A stretch of DNA of 15,795 nucleotides from the UHGV virus genome UHGV-0205859; one strand, 5' to 3'. The stretch comes from a virus. The translations under genes were made by a program, and so were the position numbers. Position 1 is the first letter of the stretch, and the number at the start of each line of letters is the position of its first letter. Of the stretch, positions 1,214 through 12,211 are shown piece by piece. The notes beneath the pieces were generated by a model, which did no database searches, was not told where the DNA came from, and saw only the letters and a program-made list of their open reading frames with translations.

Positions 1214-2229
1214 AAACCGGTAAGGGATAATCCGCTTAAGATTTACCGGTGGCGAAGAGAGCCAAGGCATCAAATTACGCGATTACCTGTAGCAGTACAA
1301 TATATGGTTTACGTTTTCTTATTAATTCCAGATGTATGCCTGTGCGCCGTATCGTCGCCGTATTCCTGCATTAACAGAGACCGCAGCCCTTGCGGGATAC
1401 TCCTCTGCGCGAGTGTGCGGGTATAATCAAAAACGATGCACACCGGGTTTTGCTGCGAGAACTGAACGGGGCGCGTATTGTATCCTCATAATTGCCCGCC
1501 CAGTGCGATGGTGGAAGAAACCGGAATGATGAATTGTGAATGCAAAATATGGTTCTGCATTGAATAATACAGGCATTGTTTCCTGTTTACATCCAGAACA
1601 TATTTAAATATGCCTGCCTGGGACAGAGTAAAGTGGCTACGGAAAAAAGGTATGCTTCCGGATAAATGTTTTTTGATAACCAGTTTTGTCCAGATATTGT
1701 TTGATCTGTGGTTTATATAAACAGGTCTTTTTTTGGTCTGTACCGTGATCATACTATGGTTATGTGTGGTAAAGCGTATATTCCCTGTAGACAGGAAATA
1801 AAAACAATGCGAGATATCATTTTTTTTTAAGATAGTCAGTGACGGAAATAATATCGCTATTGTGTGATGAAATAAGCAAGGATATAACAGAGCTAAGCCG
1901 GTTGTTCTCTGTGGGGACACAATCTGGTGGCGATAAATCAGAATGCGTGATGTAAAGATTAAGCATGTAAAACCATGGTGTTTAACTGAAGGTTACTGTG
2001 CGGCGGGAAAATAATGAAGTGAAAAGCTAATGTCTATTTGTTATTTTCGCATGATAAAGCAGAGGTATTATTTTTTTGCTAATTTATTCTTTTGATATGT
2101 CTTATCTGTATTTGTGGTTGGTTGTAAACCTCTATTGCAACTGACATCGTCAGCAATGTTGCATACTCATTCAGGTGCAACATGGCGTGGAAGAAAGAAT
2201 ACAGGTATGAGGATATTTGAGTGGATGAT

Positions 2230-2256
2230 AAAAAAAAGCCGCAGGTGGTATGCGGC
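2230..2256 (-). terminator. Candidate rho-independent terminator on the minus strand
   Basis: Plus strand reads A8 (2230-2237) then GCCGCA (2238-2243), a 7-nt loop, and TGCGGC (2251-2256). On the minus strand this is a perfect 6-bp GC-rich stem followed by eight T residues. Confidence 0.5.
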
Positions 2257-2375
2257 ATGAAATGGCACGAATCAGTGGATATATCTTTTTTCGTTTGTAT
2301 TTTTATCTTATTTCCAGAGGTGTAATCAATTCGAAAAATACGTGAGAACAGAGCGTATATTTTCGACCTTTTTAT

Positions 2376-2432
2376 GGGTCCTCCTGGTGGGGTCGGCCTG
2401 TCCACGGGGCGGGTCGGCGCGGAAAAAGGCGC
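2376..2432. other. Candidate cos region (cosN-like GC-rich block) for cohesive-end packaging
   Basis: A sharply GC-rich island inside AT-rich DNA, about 190 bp upstream of the terminase small-subunit start, matching lambda's cosN-to-Nu1 spacing. ACGGGGCGGGTCGGCGCGG (2404-2422) resembles the lambda cos sequence ACGGGGCGGCGACCTCGCGGG as recalled. A second GGGGCGGC occurs at 2542-2549. Confidence 0.4.
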
Positions 2433-2608
2433 ATTTTTGTGATTTTATCGCCATCATCATCATGTCTGTAACTTATTGTTTTAAATTGTTTTGATGCAAA
2501 AAAGATGATGAATGTGGTTGATTTTTGTTCGACATCTTTGTGGGGCGGCATTTCTTTACAAAAAAACAGAGTCACTTCTGTTTTGCGGGTTACGTGGAGG
2601 ACGTGTAA

Positions 2609-3085
2609 ATGGACGGCGAGCTGAAAAATATGAAGTTAAATATTAATCAACTGGCATCCCTTTCAGGCCTGCACCGGCAGACTGTTACCGCAAGAATGGC
2701 AGATGTTCCTCTTGCACCAGGCAGCAATGAGAAGAAAAAACTTTATTTCCTGACGGATTTGATTACCTCGCTGCTGGAAAAGCCACCATCCACCGAAGAT
2801 GAGGAGATGAATCCACACGATCGCAAGGCATGGTATCAGTCCGAGCGCGAGCGCCTTAAATTTCAGCATGAAACTGTTCAGCTTGTGCCCGTCAGTGATG
2901 TCAGGCGGTCGTTTTCCGTCGTGGTGAAAGCCATTGTGCAGATACTGGAAACCTGGCCTGACAGGCTGGAAAGGGACAGGGGGTGGACTGCATCACAACT
3001 GAACGAAGTGCAGATCGTTGTTGATGAGATCCGTGACACGCTGGAAAAGGCAGTGATTGCCTGCTGTGATGAGGCTGATATGTGA
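2609..3085 (+). CDS. Terminase small subunit (DNA-recognition subunit, Nu1-like role)
   Basis: 158 aa, GGAGG at 2596-2600. N-terminal helix-turn-helix-like segment (LNINQLASLSGLHRQTVTARMA). Its stop overlaps the large-subunit GTG start (GTGA). Position directly upstream of a GpA-type large terminase. Confidence 0.75.
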   Translation: MDGELKNMKLNINQLASLSGLHRQTVTARMADVPLAPGSNEKKKLYFLTDLITSLLEKPPSTEDEEMNPHDRKAWYQSERERLKFQHETVQLVPVSDVRRSFSVVVKAIVQILETWPDRLERDRGWTASQLNEVQIVVDEIRDTLEKAVIACCDEADM

Positions 3086-5205
3086 ATCCGGTTAACGAGT
3101 GCCATAGCCGCGCATCCGATATCTGGCGCGAAGTGGCCTCGCTGTTTCGCCCACCCAGCCGGTTACCTGTGGTGGAAGCCATCAGGCGTTATATGCGGGT
3201 ACCACGGGGAGCCAATACATCCGGTCCGTGGGAGTCATCGCTGACGCCCTATATGATAGACCCCATTAATACATTATCAGCCCGTGAATATGACGCGGTG
3301 GTGTTTGTCGGACCTGCGCGAACGGGCAAAACCGAGGGGCTGATTGACGGCTGGATTGTGTACGGCATCATCTGTGATCCGGCTGACATGCTGGTGGTGC
3401 AGATGACTGAGACGAAGGCGCGTGAGCATTCCAGAACGCGTCTTTCCAGGACGTTTCGCCACAGTCCGGAGGTCAGTAAGCGCCTCAGTCCTTCCCGTAA
3501 CGACAACAACGTCCACGACAAAATGTTTCTTGACGGCTCATTCCTGAAAATTGGCTGGCCGTCGATCACCGTATTTTCCTCCTCGGATTACCGTCGTGTG
3601 GCGCTGACGGATTATGACCGTTTCCCTGAAAACGTGGACGGGGAAGGGGATGCCTTCACCCTGGCCTCAAAGCGTACCACCACCTTTATGTCCTCCGGGA
3701 TGACCCTGGTTGAGAGTTCACCGGGGCGGGATATTACTGACACCAAATGGCGTTGTGGTGGCGCACATGAGGCACCGCCAACAACGGGGATCATGTCACT
3801 GTATAACCGGGGAGACCGCCGCCGGTGGTACTGGCCGTGTCCGCACTGCGGGGAATATTTTCAGCCGGTGATGGATAACATGACCGGTTACCGGAATAAC
3901 CCCGATTTTGTGGCTGCCGGTCAGGCTGCCCGTCTGATGTGTCCACACTGTCGCGGGCTGATTGCCCCGGAGCAGAAACGCGAACTGAATAACATGGGGA
4001 TCTGGCTGCGGGAAGGTGAGCGGGCGGCGGCGGATGGCAGTATCACTGGAACGCCACGAAATTCCAGGATAGCGAGCTTCTGGCTGGAGGGGCCAGCTGC
4101 CGCGTTTCAGACCTGGGAACAACTGATTTTTAAGCTGCTGTCGGCAGAAGAAGAATATGAGCGAACCGGCAGTGAAGAGACCCTGAAAGCGGTGGTGAAC
4201 ACCGATATCGGACGGCCTTATCTGCCCCGTTCAGCCACGGAACAGCGCAAAAGTGAGCTGCTTGAACAGCGTGCGGAGCCGGTTCCACTGCGATGTGTGC
4301 CGGATGGCGTGCGCTTCATTGAGGCAACGGTTGACGTACAGGGCGGTAAAAACAGCCGTTTTGTGGTGCAGATCACCGGATACGGAGAGCAGGGAGAACG
4401 CTGGATTGTTGATCGCTACAACATCCGGCATTCACTGCGCAGCAGCCCCAACGGTGAAAGCCTGCCGGTTGATCCGGCTGCGTATCCGGAAGACTGGACG
4501 TTGTTGCTGACGGATGTCTTCCATAAAACCTGGCCGCTGGCTTCCGATCCGGATGTTCGTATGCGTCTTATGGCGATGGCCGTGGATACGGGCGGTGAAG
4601 CAGGGGTGACGGATAATGCCTATCGTTTCTGGCGGCAGTGCCGCCGTGACGGACTGGGTAACCGGGTGTTTCTGTTCAAGGGCGATGGCCTGCGTCGCGA
4701 CAGACTGATTAACCGTACCTTCCCGGATAACACCGGCAGAAGTGCCCGCCGTGCCAGGGCCAGTGGTGATGTTGCCCTGTGGCTGGTGCAGACCGATGCG
4801 TTTAAGGATCGGGTGAATAATGCGCTGTGGCGTGACACGCCGGGACCGAATTATATCCACTTTCCTGACTGGCTGGGGCGGTGGTTTTTCGATGAGCTGA
4901 CCTATGAGGAGCGCGGCAGTGACGGAAAATGGCGAAAGCCGGGCAGGGGCGCTAACGAAGCATTTGACCTGCTGGTCTACGCGGATGCGCTTGCCGTTCT
5001 GCATGGCTACGAAAAGATCCGCTGGCCGTCAGCACCTGACTGGGCACAACGGGAAACGTGGCTTGTCGGTCCGGAGGGGCGTTCAGATGCGACAACGCCC
5101 ACGGCGTCGTCAGGAAGGAAAGAAAAATGCCGTCACCGGCAGGAAAAACTGCGCACAGAGCGGGCAGAGGATAATCCGTGGGTAACATCAGGAGGCTGGT
5201 TGTGA
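3082..5205 (+). CDS. A: Terminase large subunit, lambda GpA family
   Basis: 707 aa with GTG start overlapping the small-subunit stop. Walker A motif GPARTGKT (aa 77-84). Size and position are typical of GpA-type terminases of cos phages. Confidence 0.9.
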   Translation: MNPVNECHSRASDIWREVASLFRPPSRLPVVEAIRRYMRVPRGANTSGPWESSLTPYMIDPINTLSAREYDAVVFVGPARTGKTEGLIDGWIVYGIICDPADMLVVQMTETKAREHSRTRLSRTFRHSPEVSKRLSPSRNDNNVHDKMFLDGSFLKIGWPSITVFSSSDYRRVALTDYDRFPENVDGEGDAFTLASKRTTTFMSSGMTLVESSPGRDITDTKWRCGGAHEAPPTTGIMSLYNRGDRRRWYWPCPHCGEYFQPVMDNMTGYRNNPDFVAAGQAARLMCPHCRGLIAPEQKRELNNMGIWLREGERAAADGSITGTPRNSRIASFWLEGPAAAFQTWEQLIFKLLSAEEEYERTGSEETLKAVVNTDIGRPYLPRSATEQRKSELLEQRAEPVPLRCVPDGVRFIEATVDVQGGKNSRFVVQITGYGEQGERWIVDRYNIRHSLRSSPNGESLPVDPAAYPEDWTLLLTDVFHKTWPLASDPDVRMRLMAMAVDTGGEAGVTDNAYRFWRQCRRDGLGNRVFLFKGDGLRRDRLINRTFPDNTGRSARRARASGDVALWLVQTDAFKDRVNNALWRDTPGPNYIHFPDWLGRWFFDELTYEERGSDGKWRKPGRGANEAFDLLVYADALAVLHGYEKIRWPSAPDWAQRETWLVGPEGRSDATTPTASSGRKEKCRHRQEKLRTERAEDNPWVTSGGWL

Positions 5206-5414
5206 GTATTGATGATGTCAGGAACATGATACAGCGGTATCGCGATGCGGAAATGGCGGTACTGGAGGGAAAATCTGTCACGTTTAACGGGCAGCAACTG
5301 ACGCTGGAAAGTCTGTCACAGATCCGCGCCGGTCGTCAGGAGTGGGAGCGAAGACTTACGGCGATGGTGAACCGCAGACGCGGGGAGCCCGGGTTTAAAC
5401 TGGCGAGGTTCTGA
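5202..5414 (+). CDS. W: Head-tail joining protein gpW
   Basis: 70 aa from GTG 5202, with AGGAGG at 5190-5195 and overlap with the terminase stop (GTGA). The C-terminal RRRGEPGF resembles lambda W RRRGPAGF as recalled. The ORF-track start at 5178 is an upstream in-frame GTG without a Shine-Dalgarno sequence. Confidence 0.8.
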   Translation: MSIDDVRNMIQRYRDAEMAVLEGKSVTFNGQQLTLESLSQIRAGRQEWERRLTAMVNRRRGEPGFKLARF

Positions 5415-6919
5415 TGGCGATTAGCGATGATGTGATTGGTTTTTTCTCGCCCGGCTGGAAAGCAGCGCGATTACGCTCAAGGGCGTTAATTATGGCCTAT
5501 GAGGCCGTGAAACCCACCAGGACGCATAAAGCACGCCGGGAAAACCGTTCTGCCGATCAGCTCAGTAAATACGGTGCGGTTTCCCTTCGGGAGCAGGCCC
5601 GCTTTCTGGATATCAATCATGACCTGGTGATAGGCGTGTTTGACAAGCTGGAGGAGCGGGTGATTGGTGCGAAGGGGATCACCGTTGAGCCTAATCCGGT
5701 GATGAAAAACGGGGAGATTGCGGCGGAGCTGGCAGCGGATATCCGGCGGTTGTGGGCAGAATGGTCTGTCAGTCCGGATGTGACCGGACAGTACACCCGT
5801 CCCATGCTCGAACGCCTGTTACTGCGTACCTGGCTGCGTGACGGGGAGGTGTTTGCGCAGATGGTCAGTGGTGCGGCAAACGGTCTTAAGCGGTCTGCCG
5901 GTGTGCCTTTCTGGCTTGAGGCGATGGAGCCGGATTTTGTGCCCATGCGCAGTGATGAGTCTGCCGGACTGAATCAAGGCGTTTTTCTGGATGAGTGGGG
6001 GAGGCCGAAAAAATATCTGGTTTACAAAAATTATCCGGTTTCCGGGATACAGAGTGATACCAAAGAGATCGCCGCAGACAAAATGGTGCATCTGAAATTC
6101 ACCCGCCGCCTGCACCAGACGCGTGGTGCGTCCATGTTGTCCGGTGTGATGGTGCGTATCAGTGCGCTTAAGGAATATGAAGATGCCGAACTGACAGCGG
6201 CGCGTATTGCTGCGGCGCTGGGGCTGTATATCCGTAAGGGGGATGGACAGGATTACGACGATCAGGGAGCAGACAAAAAAGAAGAGCGGGAAGTGCATAT
6301 CACCCCGGGCATTATCTATGACGATTTGCGTAAGGGTGAGGATATCGGCATGGTCAAATCCGACCGTCCTAATCCAAATCTTGAAAATTTTCGTAATGGT
6401 CAGTTGCGTGCGGTGGCTGCAGGCAGTCGTCTGAGCTTTTCCAGTACCGCACGCAACTACAATGGCACCTACAGTTCACAGCGGCAGGAGCTGGTCGAGT
6501 CCACCGACGGTTACCTTATCCTGCAGGACTGCTTTATTGGCGCGGTAACCCGCCCGGTGTACCGTGCATGGCTGAATATGGTGGTTGCTGCCGGTCTGCT
6601 GAAAATCCCGTCTTGCCTGGATATGAAGACGTTATATAACGCGACATATTCAGGTCCGGTGATGCCGTGGATAGATCCGGTTAAGGAGGCTGAAGCCTGG
6701 CGGATACAGATCCGGGGTGGTGCCGCAACGGAATCCGACTGGGTACGTGCCGGCGGACGTCATCCGGATGAGGTTAAACGTCGCCGCAAGGCTGAAATTG
6801 ATGAAAACTGCAGACTGGGGCTGGTCTTTGATACTGACCCCGTCAACGACAAAGGAGGCAACAGTGCCGGAACTGAACGACAGCGTCAACAGGCCACCGA
6901 CAGCCAGCATGAAGAATAA
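5414..6919 (+). CDS. B: Portal protein (lambda gpB family)
   Basis: 501 aa; ATG overlaps the W stop (TGATG). Size and position between W and the capsid gene fit a portal; weak motif resemblance to lambda B. Confidence 0.85.
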   Translation: MAISDDVIGFFSPGWKAARLRSRALIMAYEAVKPTRTHKARRENRSADQLSKYGAVSLREQARFLDINHDLVIGVFDKLEERVIGAKGITVEPNPVMKNGEIAAELAADIRRLWAEWSVSPDVTGQYTRPMLERLLLRTWLRDGEVFAQMVSGAANGLKRSAGVPFWLEAMEPDFVPMRSDESAGLNQGVFLDEWGRPKKYLVYKNYPVSGIQSDTKEIAADKMVHLKFTRRLHQTRGASMLSGVMVRISALKEYEDAELTAARIAAALGLYIRKGDGQDYDDQGADKKEEREVHITPGIIYDDLRKGEDIGMVKSDRPNPNLENFRNGQLRAVAAGSRLSFSSTARNYNGTYSSQRQELVESTDGYLILQDCFIGAVTRPVYRAWLNMVVAAGLLKIPSCLDMKTLYNATYSGPVMPWIDPVKEAEAWRIQIRGGAATESDWVRAGGRHPDEVKRRRKAEIDENCRLGLVFDTDPVNDKGGNSAGTERQRQQATDSQHEE

Positions 6920-8888
6920 ATCCTGGTTCAGGATGCAGGCTGGGGAGCCGGGTGACGCGGATATTTATATTTATGACGAGATTGGTTTCTGGGGAGTTAC
7001 CGCGAAGCAGTTTGTCTGCGATCTGAATGCTCTGGGTGATATCACCCACATTAATCTCCATATCAACTCACCGGGTGGCGATGTCTTTGAAGGCATCGCC
7101 ATTTTTAATGCCCTGAAAAATCAGGGGGCGACCATTACCGTGTATGTGGATGGCGTTGCCGCATCGATGGCATCCGTGATTGCGATGGCCGGTGATACGG
7201 TCATTATGCCGGAAAATGCTTTCATGATGATCCATAAGCCATGGGGTTTCAGTGGGGGGGATGCTGAGGATATGCGCAGTTATGCCGATCTGCTGGATAA
7301 AGTCGAATCGGTACTGTTGCCAGCCTATGCGCAAAAAACAGGAAAAACCACCGATGAAATTGCCGCCATGCTGGCGGATGAGACCTGGATGTCAGGTGCC
7401 GAGTGTCTGGCACACGGATTTGCTGACCAGGTGACGCCAGCCGTTAAGGCAATGGCATGTATTCAGTCAAAACGTACAGAGGAATTTAAAAAGATGCCGG
7501 AATCCATCCGAAACATGATTACTCCGCCACGCAACAGTGCCCCGCGTGATACCACAGTGACAATCCCTGCACCGGCGGTAACAGAACCATCACCGGTACC
7601 GGCAGTGTCTGATGAGGAGACCATTCGCGCTGGTGTCCTGGCTGAGCAGAAAGCCCGCATGTCAGGCATTAACGATCTGTTTGCCATGTTTGGCGGTCGC
7701 TATCAGACGCTTCAGGCACAGTGCGTGGCCGATCCTGACTGTTCGCTGGAAATGGCCCGTGAACGTCTGCTGAATGAAATGGGTAAGGAATCCTCGCCGA
7801 CCAACAAAAACACACCGGCCCATATTTATGCCGGAAACGGTAATTTTGTTGGAGACGGGATCCGCAAGGCGCTGATGGCCCGCGCCGGATTTGAGACTAC
7901 GGAGAAGGATAATGCCTATAACGGTATGACCCTGCGTGAATGCGCCCGTATGTCACTGACAGAGCGGGGGATCGGGGTGGCCAGTTATAACCCCATGCAG
8001 ATGGTGGGGCTGGCGCTGACGCACAGTACCTCAGATTTTGGCAATATTCTGCTGGATGTGTCGAATAAGGGGTTAATCCAGGGCTGGGAGGAATCAGAAG
8101 AAACCTTCCAGAAATGGACCCGCAAAGGTCGCCTGTCTGACTTCAAAACGGCATACCGTGTGGGGATGGGGGGATTTGGCTCTCTGCGTCAGGTGCGGGA
8201 AGGGGCAGAGTACAAGTACATCACCACCTCAGATCGTAAGGAGACCATTGCACTGGCGACCTACGGGGAAATTTTCTCCATCACCCGTCAGGCCATTATC
8301 AATGATGACCTGAATATGCTGGTTGATGTCCCGATGAAGATGGGGCGTGCCGCGAAAGCGACGATTGGTGATTTGGTCTACAAGGTGTTAACGGATAACC
8401 CGAAACTGTCAGACGGTAAGGCGTTGTTCCATGCCGATCACAAGAATATTGCCACGGGCGGGATTTCCGTTTCGGGGCTGGATGCGGCACGTCAGATGAT
8501 GCGCCTGCAGAAAGAGGGCGATCGTGCGCTGAATATCCGTCCGGCCTTTATGCTGGTACCGGTGGCGCTGGAGACGGTGGCAAACCAGACCATCAAGTCG
8601 GCCAGTGTGAAAGGGGCGGATGCAAACGCCGGTGTCATTAACCCGATCCAGAACTTTGCCGAAGTGATTGCGGAAGCTCGTCTTGATGCGGCAGATCCGA
8701 AAACCTGGTACCTGGCTGCGGCACAGGGGACCGACACCATTGAAGTGGCCTGGCTTGATGGTGTGGACACTCCCTACATTGACCAGCAGGAAGGCTTCAC
8801 CACTGACGGTATCGCCACAAAAATCCGTATCGATGCCGGTGTGGCACCGCTTGACTGGCGCGGACTGGTGCGTTCAGCCGCTGCCTGA
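6909..8888 (+). CDS. Fused prohead protease (ClpP/S49-like), scaffold-like linker and major capsid protein
   Basis: N-terminal region carries ClpP-like protease motifs (DIYIYDEIGFWGV, INSPGGDVFEGIAIFNAL, ASMASVIAMAGD), then a Pro/Ala/Glu-rich linker, then a roughly 330-aa C-terminal capsid-like domain. Start ATG 6909 is chosen just upstream of the protease motifs; ATG 6933 and the ORF-track start 6717 are alternatives. Confidence 0.8.
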   Translation: MKNKSWFRMQAGEPGDADIYIYDEIGFWGVTAKQFVCDLNALGDITHINLHINSPGGDVFEGIAIFNALKNQGATITVYVDGVAASMASVIAMAGDTVIMPENAFMMIHKPWGFSGGDAEDMRSYADLLDKVESVLLPAYAQKTGKTTDEIAAMLADETWMSGAECLAHGFADQVTPAVKAMACIQSKRTEEFKKMPESIRNMITPPRNSAPRDTTVTIPAPAVTEPSPVPAVSDEETIRAGVLAEQKARMSGINDLFAMFGGRYQTLQAQCVADPDCSLEMARERLLNEMGKESSPTNKNTPAHIYAGNGNFVGDGIRKALMARAGFETTEKDNAYNGMTLRECARMSLTERGIGVASYNPMQMVGLALTHSTSDFGNILLDVSNKGLIQGWEESEETFQKWTRKGRLSDFKTAYRVGMGGFGSLRQVREGAEYKYITTSDRKETIALATYGEIFSITRQAIINDDLNMLVDVPMKMGRAAKATIGDLVYKVLTDNPKLSDGKALFHADHKNIATGGISVSGLDAARQMMRLQKEGDRALNIRPAFMLVPVALETVANQTIKSASVKGADANAGVINPIQNFAEVIAEARLDAADPKTWYLAAAQGTDTIEVAWLDGVDTPYIDQQEGFTTDGIATKIRIDAGVAPLDWRGLVRSAAA

Positions 8889-8910
8889 TAAGCACTGCGT
8901 CTCTATCACT

Positions 8911-8929
8911 GCCCGAAAGGGCTTTTTTT
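8911..8929 (+). terminator. Candidate intrinsic terminator (attenuator) downstream of the capsid gene
   Basis: GCCC-GAAA-GGGC hairpin with a GNRA loop (8911-8922) followed by T7 (8923-8929), 23 nt after the capsid stop. Confidence 0.45.
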
Positions 8930-8974
8930 ATGCCTGAAAACAGCCCCGTCGGGGCTGTCCGGAGATACAGCATT

Positions 8975-9301
8975 ATGGCTAAAAATTTTGTACAGGACGG
9001 CACCACCATTGAACTGGTGAATGCCGGGGATCAAAGCATTCTTAGCGGTGCCGCAGTGGTGGTCGGCAGCATGGTGGCGGTGGCCATTACCGATATTCCT
9101 GCCGGGGAGACCGGTGACGGGTTCGCCGAAGGCGTGTTCCTGCTGCCAAAACAGTCTGCCGATGATATTCAGGCCGGTATGGTTGTTTATCTGAAGGACG
9201 GGATTGTGCAGCCTGCCGCAGACGGCGCAGTGGCGGCGGGGATGGCATGGGAGCATGCGCCGTCAGGCAGCACCACGGTGGCGGTCAAAATCAATGCCTG
9301 A
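8975..9301 (+). CDS. Putative head decoration protein (DUF2190-like small capsid-associated protein)
   Basis: 108 aa from ATG 8975, with GGAG at 8961-8964. Gly/Ala/Val-rich small protein directly downstream of the capsid gene. The ORF-track start at 8930 lacks an RBS and overlaps the terminator T-run. Confidence 0.5.
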   Translation: MAKNFVQDGTTIELVNAGDQSILSGAAVVVGSMVAVAITDIPAGETGDGFAEGVFLLPKQSADDIQAGMVVYLKDGIVQPAADGAVAAGMAWEHAPSGSTTVAVKINA

Positions 9302-9575
9302 GCTGTTTGCGCGAATGTGCCACCGGATGGACATGGCGACAGTGCGCATGATGGGGAAAATGGCGGAGATTAACGGTGTCAGTTATGACGTGATACCGGA
9401 GTATGAGTCCGCTGATATGGGCGCGCTTTCCGGCAGTCAGTTGTCTCTGGTGGTGTTTTCAGACCAGTACCGGCCTGCCCGTGATGATGAGGTTGTGTTT
9501 GACGGGCGTTCACTGGTAGTGACCCGTTATGACACATACAACGGTAAACCCCGTATTTTTGTCGAACAGGAATAA
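9294..9575 (+). CDS. FII: Head-tail joining / tail attachment protein, gpFII-like
   Basis: 93 aa from ATG 9294, overlapping the upstream stop. The pattern ELFARM...RMMG...SLVVFSDQY...DDEVVFDG parallels lambda FII as recalled. The ORF-track start at 9204 lies inside the upstream gene. Confidence 0.65.
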   Translation: MPELFARMCHRMDMATVRMMGKMAEINGVSYDVIPEYESADMGALSGSQLSLVVFSDQYRPARDDEVVFDGRSLVVTRYDTYNGKPRIFVEQE

Positions 9576-9577
9576 GT

Positions 9578-10204
9578 ATGGCGATAAAAGGTCTGGCGCA
9601 GGCCATGAAAAATCTGGATGCGATTGACCACCGTGCCGTTCCCCTGGCTGCCGCCACGACGCTTAACCGTGTGGCGGAGTCCATCATCGCGAAAACGGCC
9701 TCTTCGGTTGCCAGGGAGCTGGTGGTCCCACGCCGTCTTATCCGTGAGCGTATCCGCCTGCAACAGGCCAGCGCGGACAGGGTTTATGCGAAGGTCATCA
9801 TCAACACCGGTAATCTGCCCGCCATAAAACTGGGGACGGCCAGCGCGCGGCTTTCCCGCAGAAAGCGGCGAAAGAAAGGCGAGCGATCGGTCACGAAAGG
9901 CGGTGGCAGCGTGCTGATTGTCGGGAAACGGCGGATCCCGAATGCCTTTATTACCCGGCTGGAAAATGGCCGGTGGCATGTGATGCAGCGTATGCCGTGG
10001 GCGTCGTCGTCAACCGGTGTTGACCGTAAGGGCAGGCCAGCGCGTTATCGTCTGCCGGTTGAAGTGGTGAAAATACCGACGGCCAGACCGCTGGCGGAAA
10101 CCTTTGAGCGGGAACGTGACCGGATGTACCGGGAAAAATTACCGGAACAGATGATGAAAGCCATGACATATCAGTTACGTCTTGTTCTGAAACGAAAACT
10201 GTAA
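9578..10204 (+). CDS. Z: Tail completion protein gpZ
   Basis: 208 aa; the N-terminus MAIKGL and motifs RRKRRKKGERS, KGGGSVL and NGRWHVMQR closely match lambda Z as recalled. Confidence 0.85.
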   Translation: MAIKGLAQAMKNLDAIDHRAVPLAAATTLNRVAESIIAKTASSVARELVVPRRLIRERIRLQQASADRVYAKVIINTGNLPAIKLGTASARLSRRKRRKKGERSVTKGGGSVLIVGKRRIPNAFITRLENGRWHVMQRMPWASSSTGVDRKGRPARYRLPVEVVKIPTARPLAETFERERDRMYREKLPEQMMKAMTYQLRLVLKRKL

Positions 10205-10213
10205 GGAGGTGGA

Positions 10214-10612
10214 ATGAAACATCGGGAAATACGGGCGGCAGTTCTGTCTGCCCTGAAGGCAAATATTACTGAGCAGGTGACCTGGTTTGACGGGCGACCT
10301 GCTTTTATTGACGAGCTGGAGCTTCCGGCAGTGGCGGTCTACCTGACTGATGCGTCGGCAGCTGACGAGTTCGTTGATGAGGAAACCTGGGAGGCGGTAC
10401 TGCATATCGAGGTGTTTCTCAGGGCGAAAGAAACGGATTCGGCACTGGATATGTGGATGGAAGAAAAAATTTTTCCGGTGCTGGAGGGCGTGCCCGGTCT
10501 CAGTGCACTACTGCTGAAAATGAACCTTCAGGGGTACGACTACCGCCGCGATGATGAGTTCATGATGTGGGGATCGGCAGATCTCCGGTGGAATATTACC
10601 TACGAAATGTGA
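10214..10612 (+). CDS. U: Tail terminator protein gpU
   Basis: 132 aa with AGGAGG RBS. MKH.E.RAAVL...FDGRPA...PAVAVYLT...LHIEVFL...GYDYRRDD...ADL...ITYEM matches lambda U as recalled. Confidence 0.9.
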
Positions 10613-10619
10613 GGACGCT

Positions 10620-11378
10620 ATGCCAACACCTAATCCCCTTGAGCCGGTAAAAGGCTCAGGCACCACACTCTGGCTTTATTCCGGGAATGGTGATGCCTAT
10701 GCGAATCCGTTGTCTGATGATGACTGGACGCGACTGGCGAAAATCAAGGATCTGACACCGGGAGAAATGACGGCAGAGTCCTACGACGATAACTACCTTG
10801 ACGACGATGATGCTGACTGGATATCCACCGGACAGGGACAGAAATCAGCCGGTGATACCAGTTTTACCCTGGCCTGGAAACCCGGCGAAGCCGGTCAGCA
10901 GGCGTTGTTGCGGTGGTTTGATGAGGGCGATTCCAGAGCCTATAAAATCCGTTTTCCCAATGGCACGGTTGATGTCTTCCGTGGCTGGGTCAGCAGTATC
11001 GGTAAAGCCGTCACCGCAAAAGAAGTGATCACCCGCACGGTGAAAGTCACCAATATCGGACGCCCGTCGCTGGCGGAGGACAGCGGGACCATCACGCCGG
11101 TGACGGGCATCACCGTCACACCGGCAATCGCTTCGGTCGGCGTGGGCCAGAATATATCACTGACGGTGGCCGTTCAGCCGGATAACGCGTCTGATAAAAC
11201 CTTCCGGGTGTCATCTGACCACAACAGTGTGGCGACAGTGACCATGAAGGACAGCATCATAACGGTGAAAGGGGTGGCAAAAGGCACTGCACTTATTCCT
11301 GTCATGAGCAATGGCGGCGATTTTGCTGCAGTAGCCACAGTAACGGTCACCGACCCTGCAGCACAACCCACCACGTAA
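10620..11378 (+). CDS. V: Major tail tube protein gpV with C-terminal Ig-like (Big_2-type) domain
   Basis: 252 aa. [68 protein letters not shown] are near-identical to lambda V as recalled. The C-terminal ~90 aa is a Thr/Val-rich beta-type domain. Confidence 0.9.
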
Positions 11379-11396
11379 TTATCCCGGAGTGAATTT

Positions 11397-11795
11397 ATGT
11401 TTCTGAAAACTGAACCGTTTGAATATAACGGGCAGACTGTCACGCTCAGCGAACTGTCCGCCCTGCAGCGCCTCGAGTACCTGGCCTGGGTGAAGGAGAA
11501 GGAAGAGCAGCGGGGGGAGGGGGGCAGCGAGCAGCAGGCGCTTGATGATCTCATCCGGGAAGGCGCGCTGCTGGTTGCGATGTCGCTCTGGCATAACCAT
11601 GAACTGAAAGGCACATTGCCCTCCCTGCGTCAGGAGACAGACAGGATCATGCAGGAGGTGCTGACCACCTGGCCTGTGGAGGCCATTGCCGCAGGCAGAA
11701 ATGTGGTGGCCAGACTGAGCGGTATGTCTGCACCTGTGGATGAACCGTCAGGGAAAGAACCGGTAACGGCAAAAAAGCGTACGAAGGAGAGCTGA
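11397..11795 (+). CDS. G: Tail assembly chaperone gpG
   Basis: 132 aa. MFLKTEPFEYNGQTVTLSELSALQRLEYLA and VAMSLWHNH and QEVLTTWP match lambda G as recalled. Confidence 0.9.
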   Translation: MFLKTEPFEYNGQTVTLSELSALQRLEYLAWVKEKEEQRGEGGSEQQALDDLIREGALLVAMSLWHNHELKGTLPSLRQETDRIMQEVLTTWPVEAIAAGRNVVARLSGMSAPVDEPSGKEPVTAKKRTKES

Positions 11796-12211
11796 TTTTT
11801 GTACTGAAACTGGCGCGCGAGATGAGCCGACCTGACTGGCGCGCCATGCTTGCCGGAATGTCATCAACCGAATATACCGACTGGCGTCATTTTTACCGCA
11901 CGCATTTTTTTCAGGATGTGCAGCTGGACATGCATTTTGCCGGGATGACGTATGCCGTCCTCAGCCTGTTTTTTGCCGATCCGGAGATGCATCCGTCTGA
12001 CTTCAGTCTGCTGCGTGAGCCGGAAAAAGGGGAAAAAGAGGATGATGATGCGCTGATGCAAAAGGCAACAGGGCTTGCCGGCGGTGTCCGTTATGGTCCT
12101 GATGGTGTGGTTGTGGCGTCTGACAGTCTGACGCCCTCCGGGCATGAAGATGACGTCATACTGATGACGGTATCAGAAGGTATCGCAGGAGGTGTCCGCT
12201 ATGTCGGGTAA
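11397..12211 (+). CDS. GT: Tail assembly chaperone G-T fusion, produced by programmed -1 ribosomal frameshift near 11771-11777
   Basis: The -1 frame is open from 11744 and continues through the G stop. It encodes ...ELIFVLKLAREMSRPDWRAMLAGMSSTEY..., matching lambda gpT as recalled. A slippery heptamer A_AAA_AAG is in correct register in the G frame. Confidence 0.8.
11771..11777 (+). promoter_or_regulatory. Slippery heptamer A_AAA_AAG for the G to G-T -1 frameshift
   Basis: In G's frame the codons are gcA AAA AAG (A at 11771, AAA 11772-74, AAG 11775-77). The heptamer lies inside the 11744-11795 window where both frames are open. Confidence 0.7.

Follow-up and report, generated by a model that had tools for sequence, protein, structure and literature searches.

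The non-coding DNA at positions 2376–2539 of the window, by which we mean the entire 15,795-nucleotide stretch analysed here, is very probably (probability about 0.9, judged from sequence comparison) the cos site of a lambda-like prophage with head genes of the Gifsy/Fels-1/VT1-Sakai type. A complete lambda-type cos, consisting of cosQ, cosN, an I2-like spacer and cosB, can be recognized in this segment by its resemblance to known sites. It is an ordinary feature of a type already known, and Gifsy-1, Fels-1 and mEp213 were previously put in the lambda-like class. Locating it defines where the prophage genome begins and ends and in which direction it is packaged, and provides a testable map of cos subsites for terminases with a DUF1441 small subunit (TerS), whose DNA sites are hardly described. 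Since the phage group includes VT1-Sakai (Stx1) and long-tailed Stx2 phages, its cos helps to predict which DNA is moved between strains by phages and by elements that copy cos.

The window represents the late region of a lambdoid prophage, in which a non-coding stretch separates a DUF1398 gene from the TerS gene. The closest phage records, those of VT1-Sakai and several long-tailed Stx2 phages, are about 90% identical, with homology from about position 2369. The surrounding features are as follows.

45–410: lysozyme
746–1213: Rz
1486–1920, minus strand: DUF1398 gene
2540–2608, plus strand: leader of the TerS gene, outside the conserved cos block; holds GGGGCGGC (2542–2549), a conserved block at 2550–2582 and the ribosome-binding site GGAGG at 2596–2600
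2609–3085, plus strand: TerS, 158 aa (Pfam DUF1441, E = 1e-48), with an N-terminal helix-turn-helix at about residues 12–31
3082–5205, plus strand: large terminase subunit (TerL) of the gpA type (Pfam GpA_ATPase 5.6e-81, GpA_nuclease 1.5e-83)
5414–6919: lambda-type portal
6717–8888: fused ClpP-protease/capsid gene

Profile comparisons identify TerS as a remote homologue of lambda Nu1. The PHROG matches are reciprocal, the window TerS matching phrog_57, the Nu1 family, over its full length (1.5e-10) and Nu1 matching phrog_141, the TerS family (5.6e-8). In an hhalign comparison the two proteins are collinear (E = 6e-4), with LNINQLASLSGLHRQTVTARM over the helix-turn-helix and GSNEKKKLY over the wing. 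Pairwise BLASTP of TerS against lambda Nu1 gave no significant similarity, sequence and profile searches against solved structures returned only weak helix-turn-helix matches, and a single-sequence AlphaFold model of TerS was too poor for use (pLDDT 49). TerL is 24% identical to lambda gpA and 66% identical to the TerL of Fels-1.

Terminase cuts replicated DNA into genome lengths at cos, and in lambda cosQ is the packaging-termination signal. A layout of cosQ, cosN, I2 and R3-I1-R2-R1 has been described for lambda, 21, phi80 and Gifsy-1 (PMC4669245, PMC9026076, PMC4856287). The corresponding subsites of the window are listed below, with bp numbers counted from the predicted left genome end and invariant columns referring to the related cos regions considered further on.

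2376–2382, plus strand: cosQ heptamer GGGTCCT, identical to lambda bp 48473–48479 and invariant in 14 related cos regions
2383–2402, plus strand: spacer between cosQ and cosN, 14 of 20 columns invariant; 22–24 nt across relatives with GGGTCCT
2403–2422, no strand assigned: putative cosN, CACG^GGGCGGGTCGG^CGCGG, with the left half CACGGGGCGG and CGCGG invariant and 2413–2415 variable
2423–2451 (bp 17–45), plus strand: I2-like A/T-rich spacer with A5, T5 and T4 tracts, 27 of 29 columns invariant
2452–2463 (bp 46–57), plus strand: R3 candidate, (CAT)4, 12 of 12 columns invariant
2469–2481 (bp 63–75), minus strand: I1 candidate, a putative IHF site; the bottom strand reads AAACAATAAGTTA, one mismatch from WATCAANNNNTTR
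2501–2512 (bp 95–106), minus strand: R2 candidate, inverted; the bottom strand reads TTCATCATCTTT, in which TTCRWCATC matches
2528–2539 (bp 122–133), plus strand: R1 candidate TTCGACATCTTT, preceded by a conserved T-tract at 2522–2527; 18 of 18 columns invariant over 2522–2539

The first-pass annotation had proposed that ACGGGGCGGGTCGGCGCGG at 2404–2422 resembles the lambda cosN region, that an A/T-rich, cosB-like region follows it, and that the block lies about 190 bp upstream of the small-terminase start, as in lambda. ACGGGGCGGGTCGGCGCGG is indeed present there, and the likeness, tested against the lambda record itself by the kind of alignment then suggested, is real. The lambda record ends in ...GGGTCCTttccggtgatccgacaggttacg and starts with GGGCGGCGACCTCGCGGG, and the window reads GGGTCCTcctggtggggtcggcctgtccacg GGGCGGGTCGG CGCGG. 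Window and lambda agree exactly in the cosQ heptamer, in CG^GGGCGG (the left half of cosN) and in the CGCGG that flanks the overhang on the right; ACGGGGCGG with the flanking CGCGG is common to window and lambda, and CACG^GGGCGG and CGCGG are at the same time invariant in the relatives of the window. From cosQ to CGCGG, 33 of 49 aligned columns match. The heptamer GGGTCCT had been missed, even though it begins at the very coordinate at which the proposed region started; the pattern GGGTCCT-N18-30-CGGGGC occurs once in the window, compared with 0.01 occurrences expected by chance. The distance from cosQ to the predicted nick is 24 nt in the window, 23 nt in lambda and 22 nt in cdtI, and that from the predicted top-strand nick to the TerS ATG (2609) is 202 nt, versus 190 nt in lambda. 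GC content is 36–43% across 2400–2600, compared with 50–60% in the downstream coding DNA, which bears out the A/T-rich region.

The order and orientation of all subsites are also those of lambda, the I1 cores are similar (top strand TAACTTATTGTTT in the window, TAACTTAATGTTT in lambda I1), and in both phages the TerS gene follows cos after about 200 bp and TerL is of the gpA type. The differences are nevertheless substantial. The R sites are unrelated (TTC-R-W-CATC in the window, CGTTTCCTTTCT in lambda); Nu1 is only remotely homologous to the DUF1441 TerS; the right half of the overhang differs, with 11 nt between the flanks instead of 12; and the window cosB is more compact, with R1 at bp 122–133 rather than bp 155–166.

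The position of the DNA ends is indicated by relatives. Read starts and PhageTerm analysis of induced Fels-1 have experimentally placed its cohesive end at the 12 nt 5'-GGGCGGCAGCGG-3' (Zünd et al., PMC8008629, Supplementary Table 4). In the Fels-1 sequence this GGGCGGCAGCGG exactly fills the interval from CACG to CGCGG, and it aligns with 2407–2417 of the window; homology to it puts the predicted top-strand nick between 2406 and 2407. The records of phages cdtI and Tritos start with GGGCGGGAGCGTCGCGGAAAAAGG, the homologue of the window from 2407 onward, and that of Hafnia phage yong2 ends with GGGGCAGCGACA (the 12 nt) and starts with CGCGGG. These mapped and deposited ends uphold the core of the earlier reading, a lambda-like cos made up of a cosN-like block and a cosB-like region. 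A scan of IMG/VR viral contigs for the invariant I2 segment yielded 79 cos copies, all of them internal, and no contig in this set ended at cos. The exact cosN variant of the window was not found in scans of species-representative genomes, and a full-text literature search for the overhang sequences returned unrelated papers only.

Conservation was assessed in 14 distinct IMG/VR cos regions that are 84–90% identical to the window. The subsites had been named before these regions were aligned, although their boundaries were partly trimmed after viewing the alignment. Positions within named subsites are invariant in 72 of 78 cases, compared with 91 of 155 other non-coding positions (Fisher P = 3e-8). 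Invariant segments comprise cosQ, CACGGGGCGG, CGCGG, (CAT)4, AAAAGATGATG and TTTTTGTTCGACATCTT, while the spacers vary.

This pattern bears on the possibility that the site derives from cos but is now an unused relic in a defective prophage, which we consider unlikely. Many lambdoid prophages of this type are defective. No complete E. coli genome is identical to the window, the best matches (97.8%) being those of M1 and M3, strains from mouse; sequence to the left of cosQ has diverged; and position 2451, adjoining R3, is a private C in the window, where all 13 closest relatives and E. coli M3 have T. Against a relic, all subsites match the invariant consensus of the relatives, the genes for TerS, TerL, portal and capsid have uninterrupted, full-length reading frames, and E. 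coli M3 has the same variant. We infer that the prophage still packages its DNA from the window cos.

Turning to the candidate protein-binding sites of cosB, the spacer that follows cosN has the position of I2, an A/T-rich segment at bp 18–50 in lambda, 21, N15 and Gifsy-1 (PMC4856287). The (CAT)4 run beyond it, which had been put forward as a possible binding element, is the only exact copy in the window, is invariant in the 14 regions and lies at the position of lambda R3 (bp 50–65); (CAT)4-type R3 motifs start at bp 45–47 in Fels-1, yong2, Chris1, mEp043 and Kp4865-4. It is predicted to be the main TerS site, positioning TerL on cosN. The small-terminase sites R3, R2 and R1 are likely of the type TTC-R-W-CATC. 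An unbiased scan for self-similar 11-mers, which recovers the known R2/R1 and R3/R2 pairs of lambda, returned for the window AAGATGATGAA/TTCGACATCTT (bp 96 and 122) and ATCATCATCAT/AAGATGATGAA (bp 47 and 96) among several tied 9/11 matches. Because 9/11 is the chance level in a 200-bp A/T-rich stretch, the weight rests on the comparison with relatives. In the R2 region AAAAGATGATG (2500–2510) is the segment that is invariant in the 14 regions, and six classes of relatives with differing sequences have an inverted R2/R1 pair near bp 95 and bp 122. The two members of the pair match at 11/11 positions in Gifsy-2 (TTCGACACTGAA) and PSTCR8lys (CTGTCACCTCA) and at 10/11 in Fels-1, and a pair is also present at the same positions in PhiR40_1 and Kp4865-4. 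R2 and R1 keep their position while their sequence co-varies across classes.

The IHF match of the window taken by itself is unremarkable (shuffle P about 0.12). Among 75 distinct related cos regions, however, 67 have a bottom-strand match with at most one mismatch starting at bp 61–64, 30 of them perfect, and 71 have a bottom-strand match if two mismatches are allowed. TerS and IHF are predicted to bind at R3/R2/R1 and at I1, respectively.

The T-rich motifs to which the first-pass annotation had drawn attention (near 2445, 2477, 2487 and 2519) exist, as four plus-strand copies within 86 bp: TGATTTT at 2440–2446 and 2519–2525, and TTGTTTT at 2476–2482 and 2486–2492. Over both strands of the whole 15.8-kb window there are 21 TGATTTT/TTGTTTT copies, versus 8.35 expected from shuffles. 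As terminase sites they do not hold up, for they lie in I2, I1 and spacers: the copy at 2440 is inside the I2-like spacer, that at 2486 is in a spacer varying freely among relatives, and that at 2519 overlaps the conserved T-tract before R1. The copy at 2476 is inside the I1 candidate.

A non-coding, A/T-rich region with T-runs might also be a transcriptional signal of the late operon (promoter, terminator or RNA element) rather than a packaging site. We regard this as very improbable, given that no promoter-like or terminator-like site and no Rfam match was found in 2376–2608. The GC block and T-run were considered as a hairpin or terminator and rejected: Fels-1, Pmp14 and lambda have T tracts where the window has A5, which leaves no conserved hairpin.

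The second GC block, GGGGCGGC at 2542–2549, had been offered as an alternative nick site, and it does resemble the GGGCGG core. It is nonetheless most unlikely, to the point of being negligible, that the real nick lies there. GGGGCGGC is common only to the window and the near-identical E. coli M3 prophage (GGGGGCGGT), other relatives having TGTGGCGGC, TATGGCGGC or TGTGGCGCT; there is no cosQ 20–30 nt upstream; the block is outside cos and outside the segment copied by the TerS-less elements described below; and the first GC block is where the ends of Fels-1, cdtI, Tritos and yong2 align. Headful (pac) packaging, with the region a mere leader of the TerS gene, is just as implausible: pac packaging goes with a P22-, Sf6- or T4-type large terminase and a pac site usually within the terS gene, whereas the window TerL matches gpA families only (Pfam), the family that makes lambda-like 5' cohesive ends, Fels-1 with its related TerL gives a discrete 12-nt end, and the cosQ, cosN and cosB layout is complete.

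With a lambda-type cos as the preferred reading, a 12-nt 5' cohesive end would be expected. In the window, 11 nt and not 12 separate the conserved nick flanks. The segment from CACG^ to ^CGCGG is 10 or 11 nt long in 78 of the 79 copies of the Sakai-type clade and 7 nt in one, and never 12, whereas it is 12 nt in Fels-1, cdtI, mEp460, mEp043 and yong2. In the Sakai clade, 2 extra nt in the I2 spacer keep the distance from the top-strand nick to R3 at 44–45 nt. The 11 nt between the flanks leave three placements for the bottom-strand nick, predicted after 2417, 2418 or 2419, with a 5' overhang of 11–13 nt beginning GGGCGGGTCGG. By homology of CGCGG the overhang would be 11 nt long; a constant stagger of 12 nt would make it 12, but without the conserved CG flank; and 13 nt follows from the distance to R3 together with the CG flank. 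Each length fits its own placement rule equally well. Twofold symmetry of cosN, tried as a means of choosing among 11, 12 and 13 nt, is too weak in the relatives to discriminate. A 9-nt end has been measured in a lambda-like cyanophage whose TerS is related (PMC9303873), so cohesive-end lengths other than 12 do occur. Terminases of the Sakai-type clade may produce cohesive ends of a length other than 12 nt.

By analogy with lambda, TerS dimers would bind R3 (2452–2463), inverted R2 (2501–2512) and R1 (2528–2539) through their N-terminal winged helix-turn-helix, and IHF would bend the DNA at I1 (2469–2481), bringing R3 and R2 together. This would anchor the gpA-type TerL on cosN, where TerL would nick the DNA at 2406/2407 on the top strand and 11–13 nt farther right on the bottom strand. 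The left genome end would then start 5'-GGGCGGGTCGG, and packaging would proceed rightward into the prohead until it stopped at the next cos in the concatemer, with cosQ (2376–2382) needed for the final cut.

We compared the window cos with those of related phages. Fels-1 has the same R motif (CATCATCATCAT, inverted AGATGATGAT and CATCATCTTC) at equal distances, the same I1, and a DUF1441 TerS about 56% identical (tblastn) to that of the window. The cos DNA of the two is 72% identical (128 of 178 columns). Fels-1 differs in having GGTACTCCT at the cosQ position instead of GGGTCCT, 12 nt between the flanks instead of 11, and an I2 that is 2 nt shorter. VT1-Sakai (Sp15), the long-tailed Stx2 phages LC5678xx and related IMG/VR prophages are closer still, with cos DNA 84–90% identical, all subsites identical and a 10–11 nt overhang segment of the same type; they depart from the window in the middle of the overhang (GCGG or CGG versus TCGG) and in the flank left of cosQ. 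The VT1-Sakai and LC5678xx records carry no cos annotation. Gifsy-1, mEp213 and LLS, studied in the Feiss and Smith laboratories, share DUF1441-type terminases, were already classed as lambda-like, and have 12-nt ends varying in bp 7–12 and a cosB of the form R3-I1-R2-R1; their overhang sequences differ from that of the window (e.g., GGGCGGCGCGCT). Phages of the mEp043/yong2 group differ in their shorter cosB, in which R1 overlaps the TerS start codon.

A TerS homologue follows 45 of the 79 cos copies; the others belong to two kinds of element. The homologous stretch that either kind shares with the phage cos begins exactly at cosQ and stops immediately after R1, which delimits the functional site as 2376–2539. 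Satellites (P4, and E. coli PICIs such as EcCICFT073) are known carriers of cos sites, and the block found in elements lacking a DUF1441 TerS is identical in layout to that of the window, where cos is part of a full phage packaging module. In the published account of PICI cos1, cosB is described as unlike that of the helper and as needing Rpp.

We tentatively suggest, at somewhat less than even odds, that a block of ~164 bp is the common cos of Sakai/Fels-1-type lambdoid phages and of at least two kinds of integrative elements without such a TerS. If so, phages like that of the window would be an unrecognised helper class for these elements, and the puzzling second PICI cos would be the genuine cos of another phage lineage. 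The elements that carry this cos are a more interesting lead than the window cos itself.

Genes of the first kind (e.g., L107) specify an integrase, a D5-type primase and SSB, together with capsid and decoration proteins of the lambda E and D types, respectively, and a member of the Nu1 family in which the Pfam match begins at residue 33. L107 has copies with 100% identity in E. coli Nissle 1917 and ATCC 25922, and at least 80% of the 2.66-kb query was matched in 590 of 5426 complete genomes. Its two cos sites are about 2.4 kb apart, one being the complete Sakai-type block and the other, located beside an Rpp-like gene, having lambda's exact GGGCGGCGACCT with a different cosB. EcCICFT073 has been described as carrying genes for capsid and decoration proteins, a pair of cos sites and Rpp, and the first kind fits that published description.

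Besides an integrase, a Bro-N protein, a D5-type primase and SSB, the second kind (e.g., L125) has a ClpP-capsid fusion of its own, with 51% identity to that of the window. It has a Sakai-type cos and a 1720a-type cos, which differ in R-site type. It interrupts the TerL gene of a prophage where the ATPase domain gives way to the nuclease domain; the left junction gives a stop codon and the right junction gives a start codon.

Two kinds of integrative element related to the window through their cos sites were found. The first, represented by L107 (IMGVR_UViG_2931335292_000001) and also present in loci L104, L118, L120, L128 and L160, lacks a DUF1441 TerS and bears two cos sites separated by about 2.4 kb. 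The cos copies of L107 are as follows.

~5639–5712 and ~3180–3272 (minus strand): L107 cos copies

One of the two is a complete Sakai-type block (the cos class of VT1-Sakai and its relatives), as in the window; in the other, GGGCGGCGACCT matches lambda exactly and cosB is different. Elements of this type encode an integrase, a D5-type primase, an SSB, a lambda E-type capsid protein, a D-type decoration protein and a Nu1-family protein, the last of which is possibly Rpp-like. E. coli Nissle 1917 and ATCC 25922 carry the L107 element at 100% identity, and 590 of 5426 complete genomes matched at least 80% of the 2.66-kb query. Compared by description, L107-type elements fit the published account of EcCICFT073-type PICIs, in which the role of the second cos site is left unexplained.

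The second kind lies within a Sakai-like prophage, whose TerL gene it interrupts. In L125 (IMGVR_UViG_2548876696_000006), an element of about 10.4 kb occupies positions 1603–12010; elements of the same kind are present in L108, L179 and L181. In contrast to the intact TerL gene of the window, that of L125 is split where the ATPase domain meets the nuclease domain, at a point equivalent to window ~4081–4095. At the left junction a stop codon arises (FWM-stop), and the right junction gives the nuclease half of TerL an ATG (M-EGPAAAF). Besides two cos blocks whose R-site types differ, the element has genes for an integrase, a Bro-N protein, a D5-type primase, an SSB and a ClpP-capsid fusion of its own. 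Its capsid fusion is 51% identical to the product of window 6717–8888, a single gene that fuses ClpP-protease, scaffold and capsid functions, as already described for Gifsy-2.

The segment of cosN between the conserved nick flanks, CACG on the left and CGCGG on the right, varies in length among closely related cos copies (window 2407–2422 and loci L021–L047 and L104–L181). Within the Sakai-type clade, segments of 10 nt (GGGCGGGCGG, GGGCGGGAGG and GGGCGGACGG) and 11 nt (GGGCGGGTCGG and GGGCGGGCGGG) are found, together with one copy of 7 nt; none of 12 nt is present in the window, L021–L047 or L104–L181. The record of phage mEp460_4F5 (L001, LR595868.1; positions 1–25) begins with CCACG, followed by only 9 nt (GGGCGGGAG) before CGCGG, whereas mEp460 has 12 nt (GGGCGGGAGCGG) there. 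The short segment reflects either a 3-nt cohesive-end deletion or an artefact of assembling the genome end.

Natural variation of cosQ is not apparent according to published work. At the cosQ position, 19–21 nt before the nick, GGTACTCC(T/C) replaces GGGTCCT in several relatives, namely Fels-1 (L010), Gifsy-2 (L015), Chris1 (L017), Pmp14 (L019), PSTCR8lys (L020) and loci L048–L064. Fels-1 has this variant, yet packages to a discrete end.

Directly left of cosQ, window 2369–2375 is a mosaic junction, at which homology to Sakai-type phages and most E. coli prophages starts. The left flank is ACCTTTTTAT, the same as in E. coli M3, instead of the usual ATCATTTTGC, which is also lambda-like. Further left, the window carries the following features.

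1486–1920, minus strand: DUF1398 gene
2036–2008: promoter-like site
2238–2256, minus strand: hairpin with a T8 run, resembling a terminator and lying upstream of the DUF1398 gene

This arrangement resembles that of an insulated accessory gene, placed after the lysis genes and before cos.

On the cosB side, the base adjoining R3 (window 2451) is C, while E. coli M3 and every one of the 13 closest cos regions have T there. A conserved block, TTTCTTTACAAAAAAACAGAGTCACTTCTGTT (window 2550–2582), follows R1 and precedes the ribosome-binding site of TerS; 26 of its 33 columns are invariant, and it includes a short imperfect palindrome (ACAGA...TCTGT). The block is absent from the 1720a-type relatives, and the capsid-bearing element retains only TTCTTTACAAAAAA of it. 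In relatives with a short cosB (129–130 nt between the end and the ATG), comprising yong2 (L004/L008), mEp043 (L016), Chris1 (L017) and Kp4865-4 (L018), R1, which reads TTCACCATC or TTCATCATC, runs straight into the TerS start codon, and TerS bound at R1 could affect its own translation.
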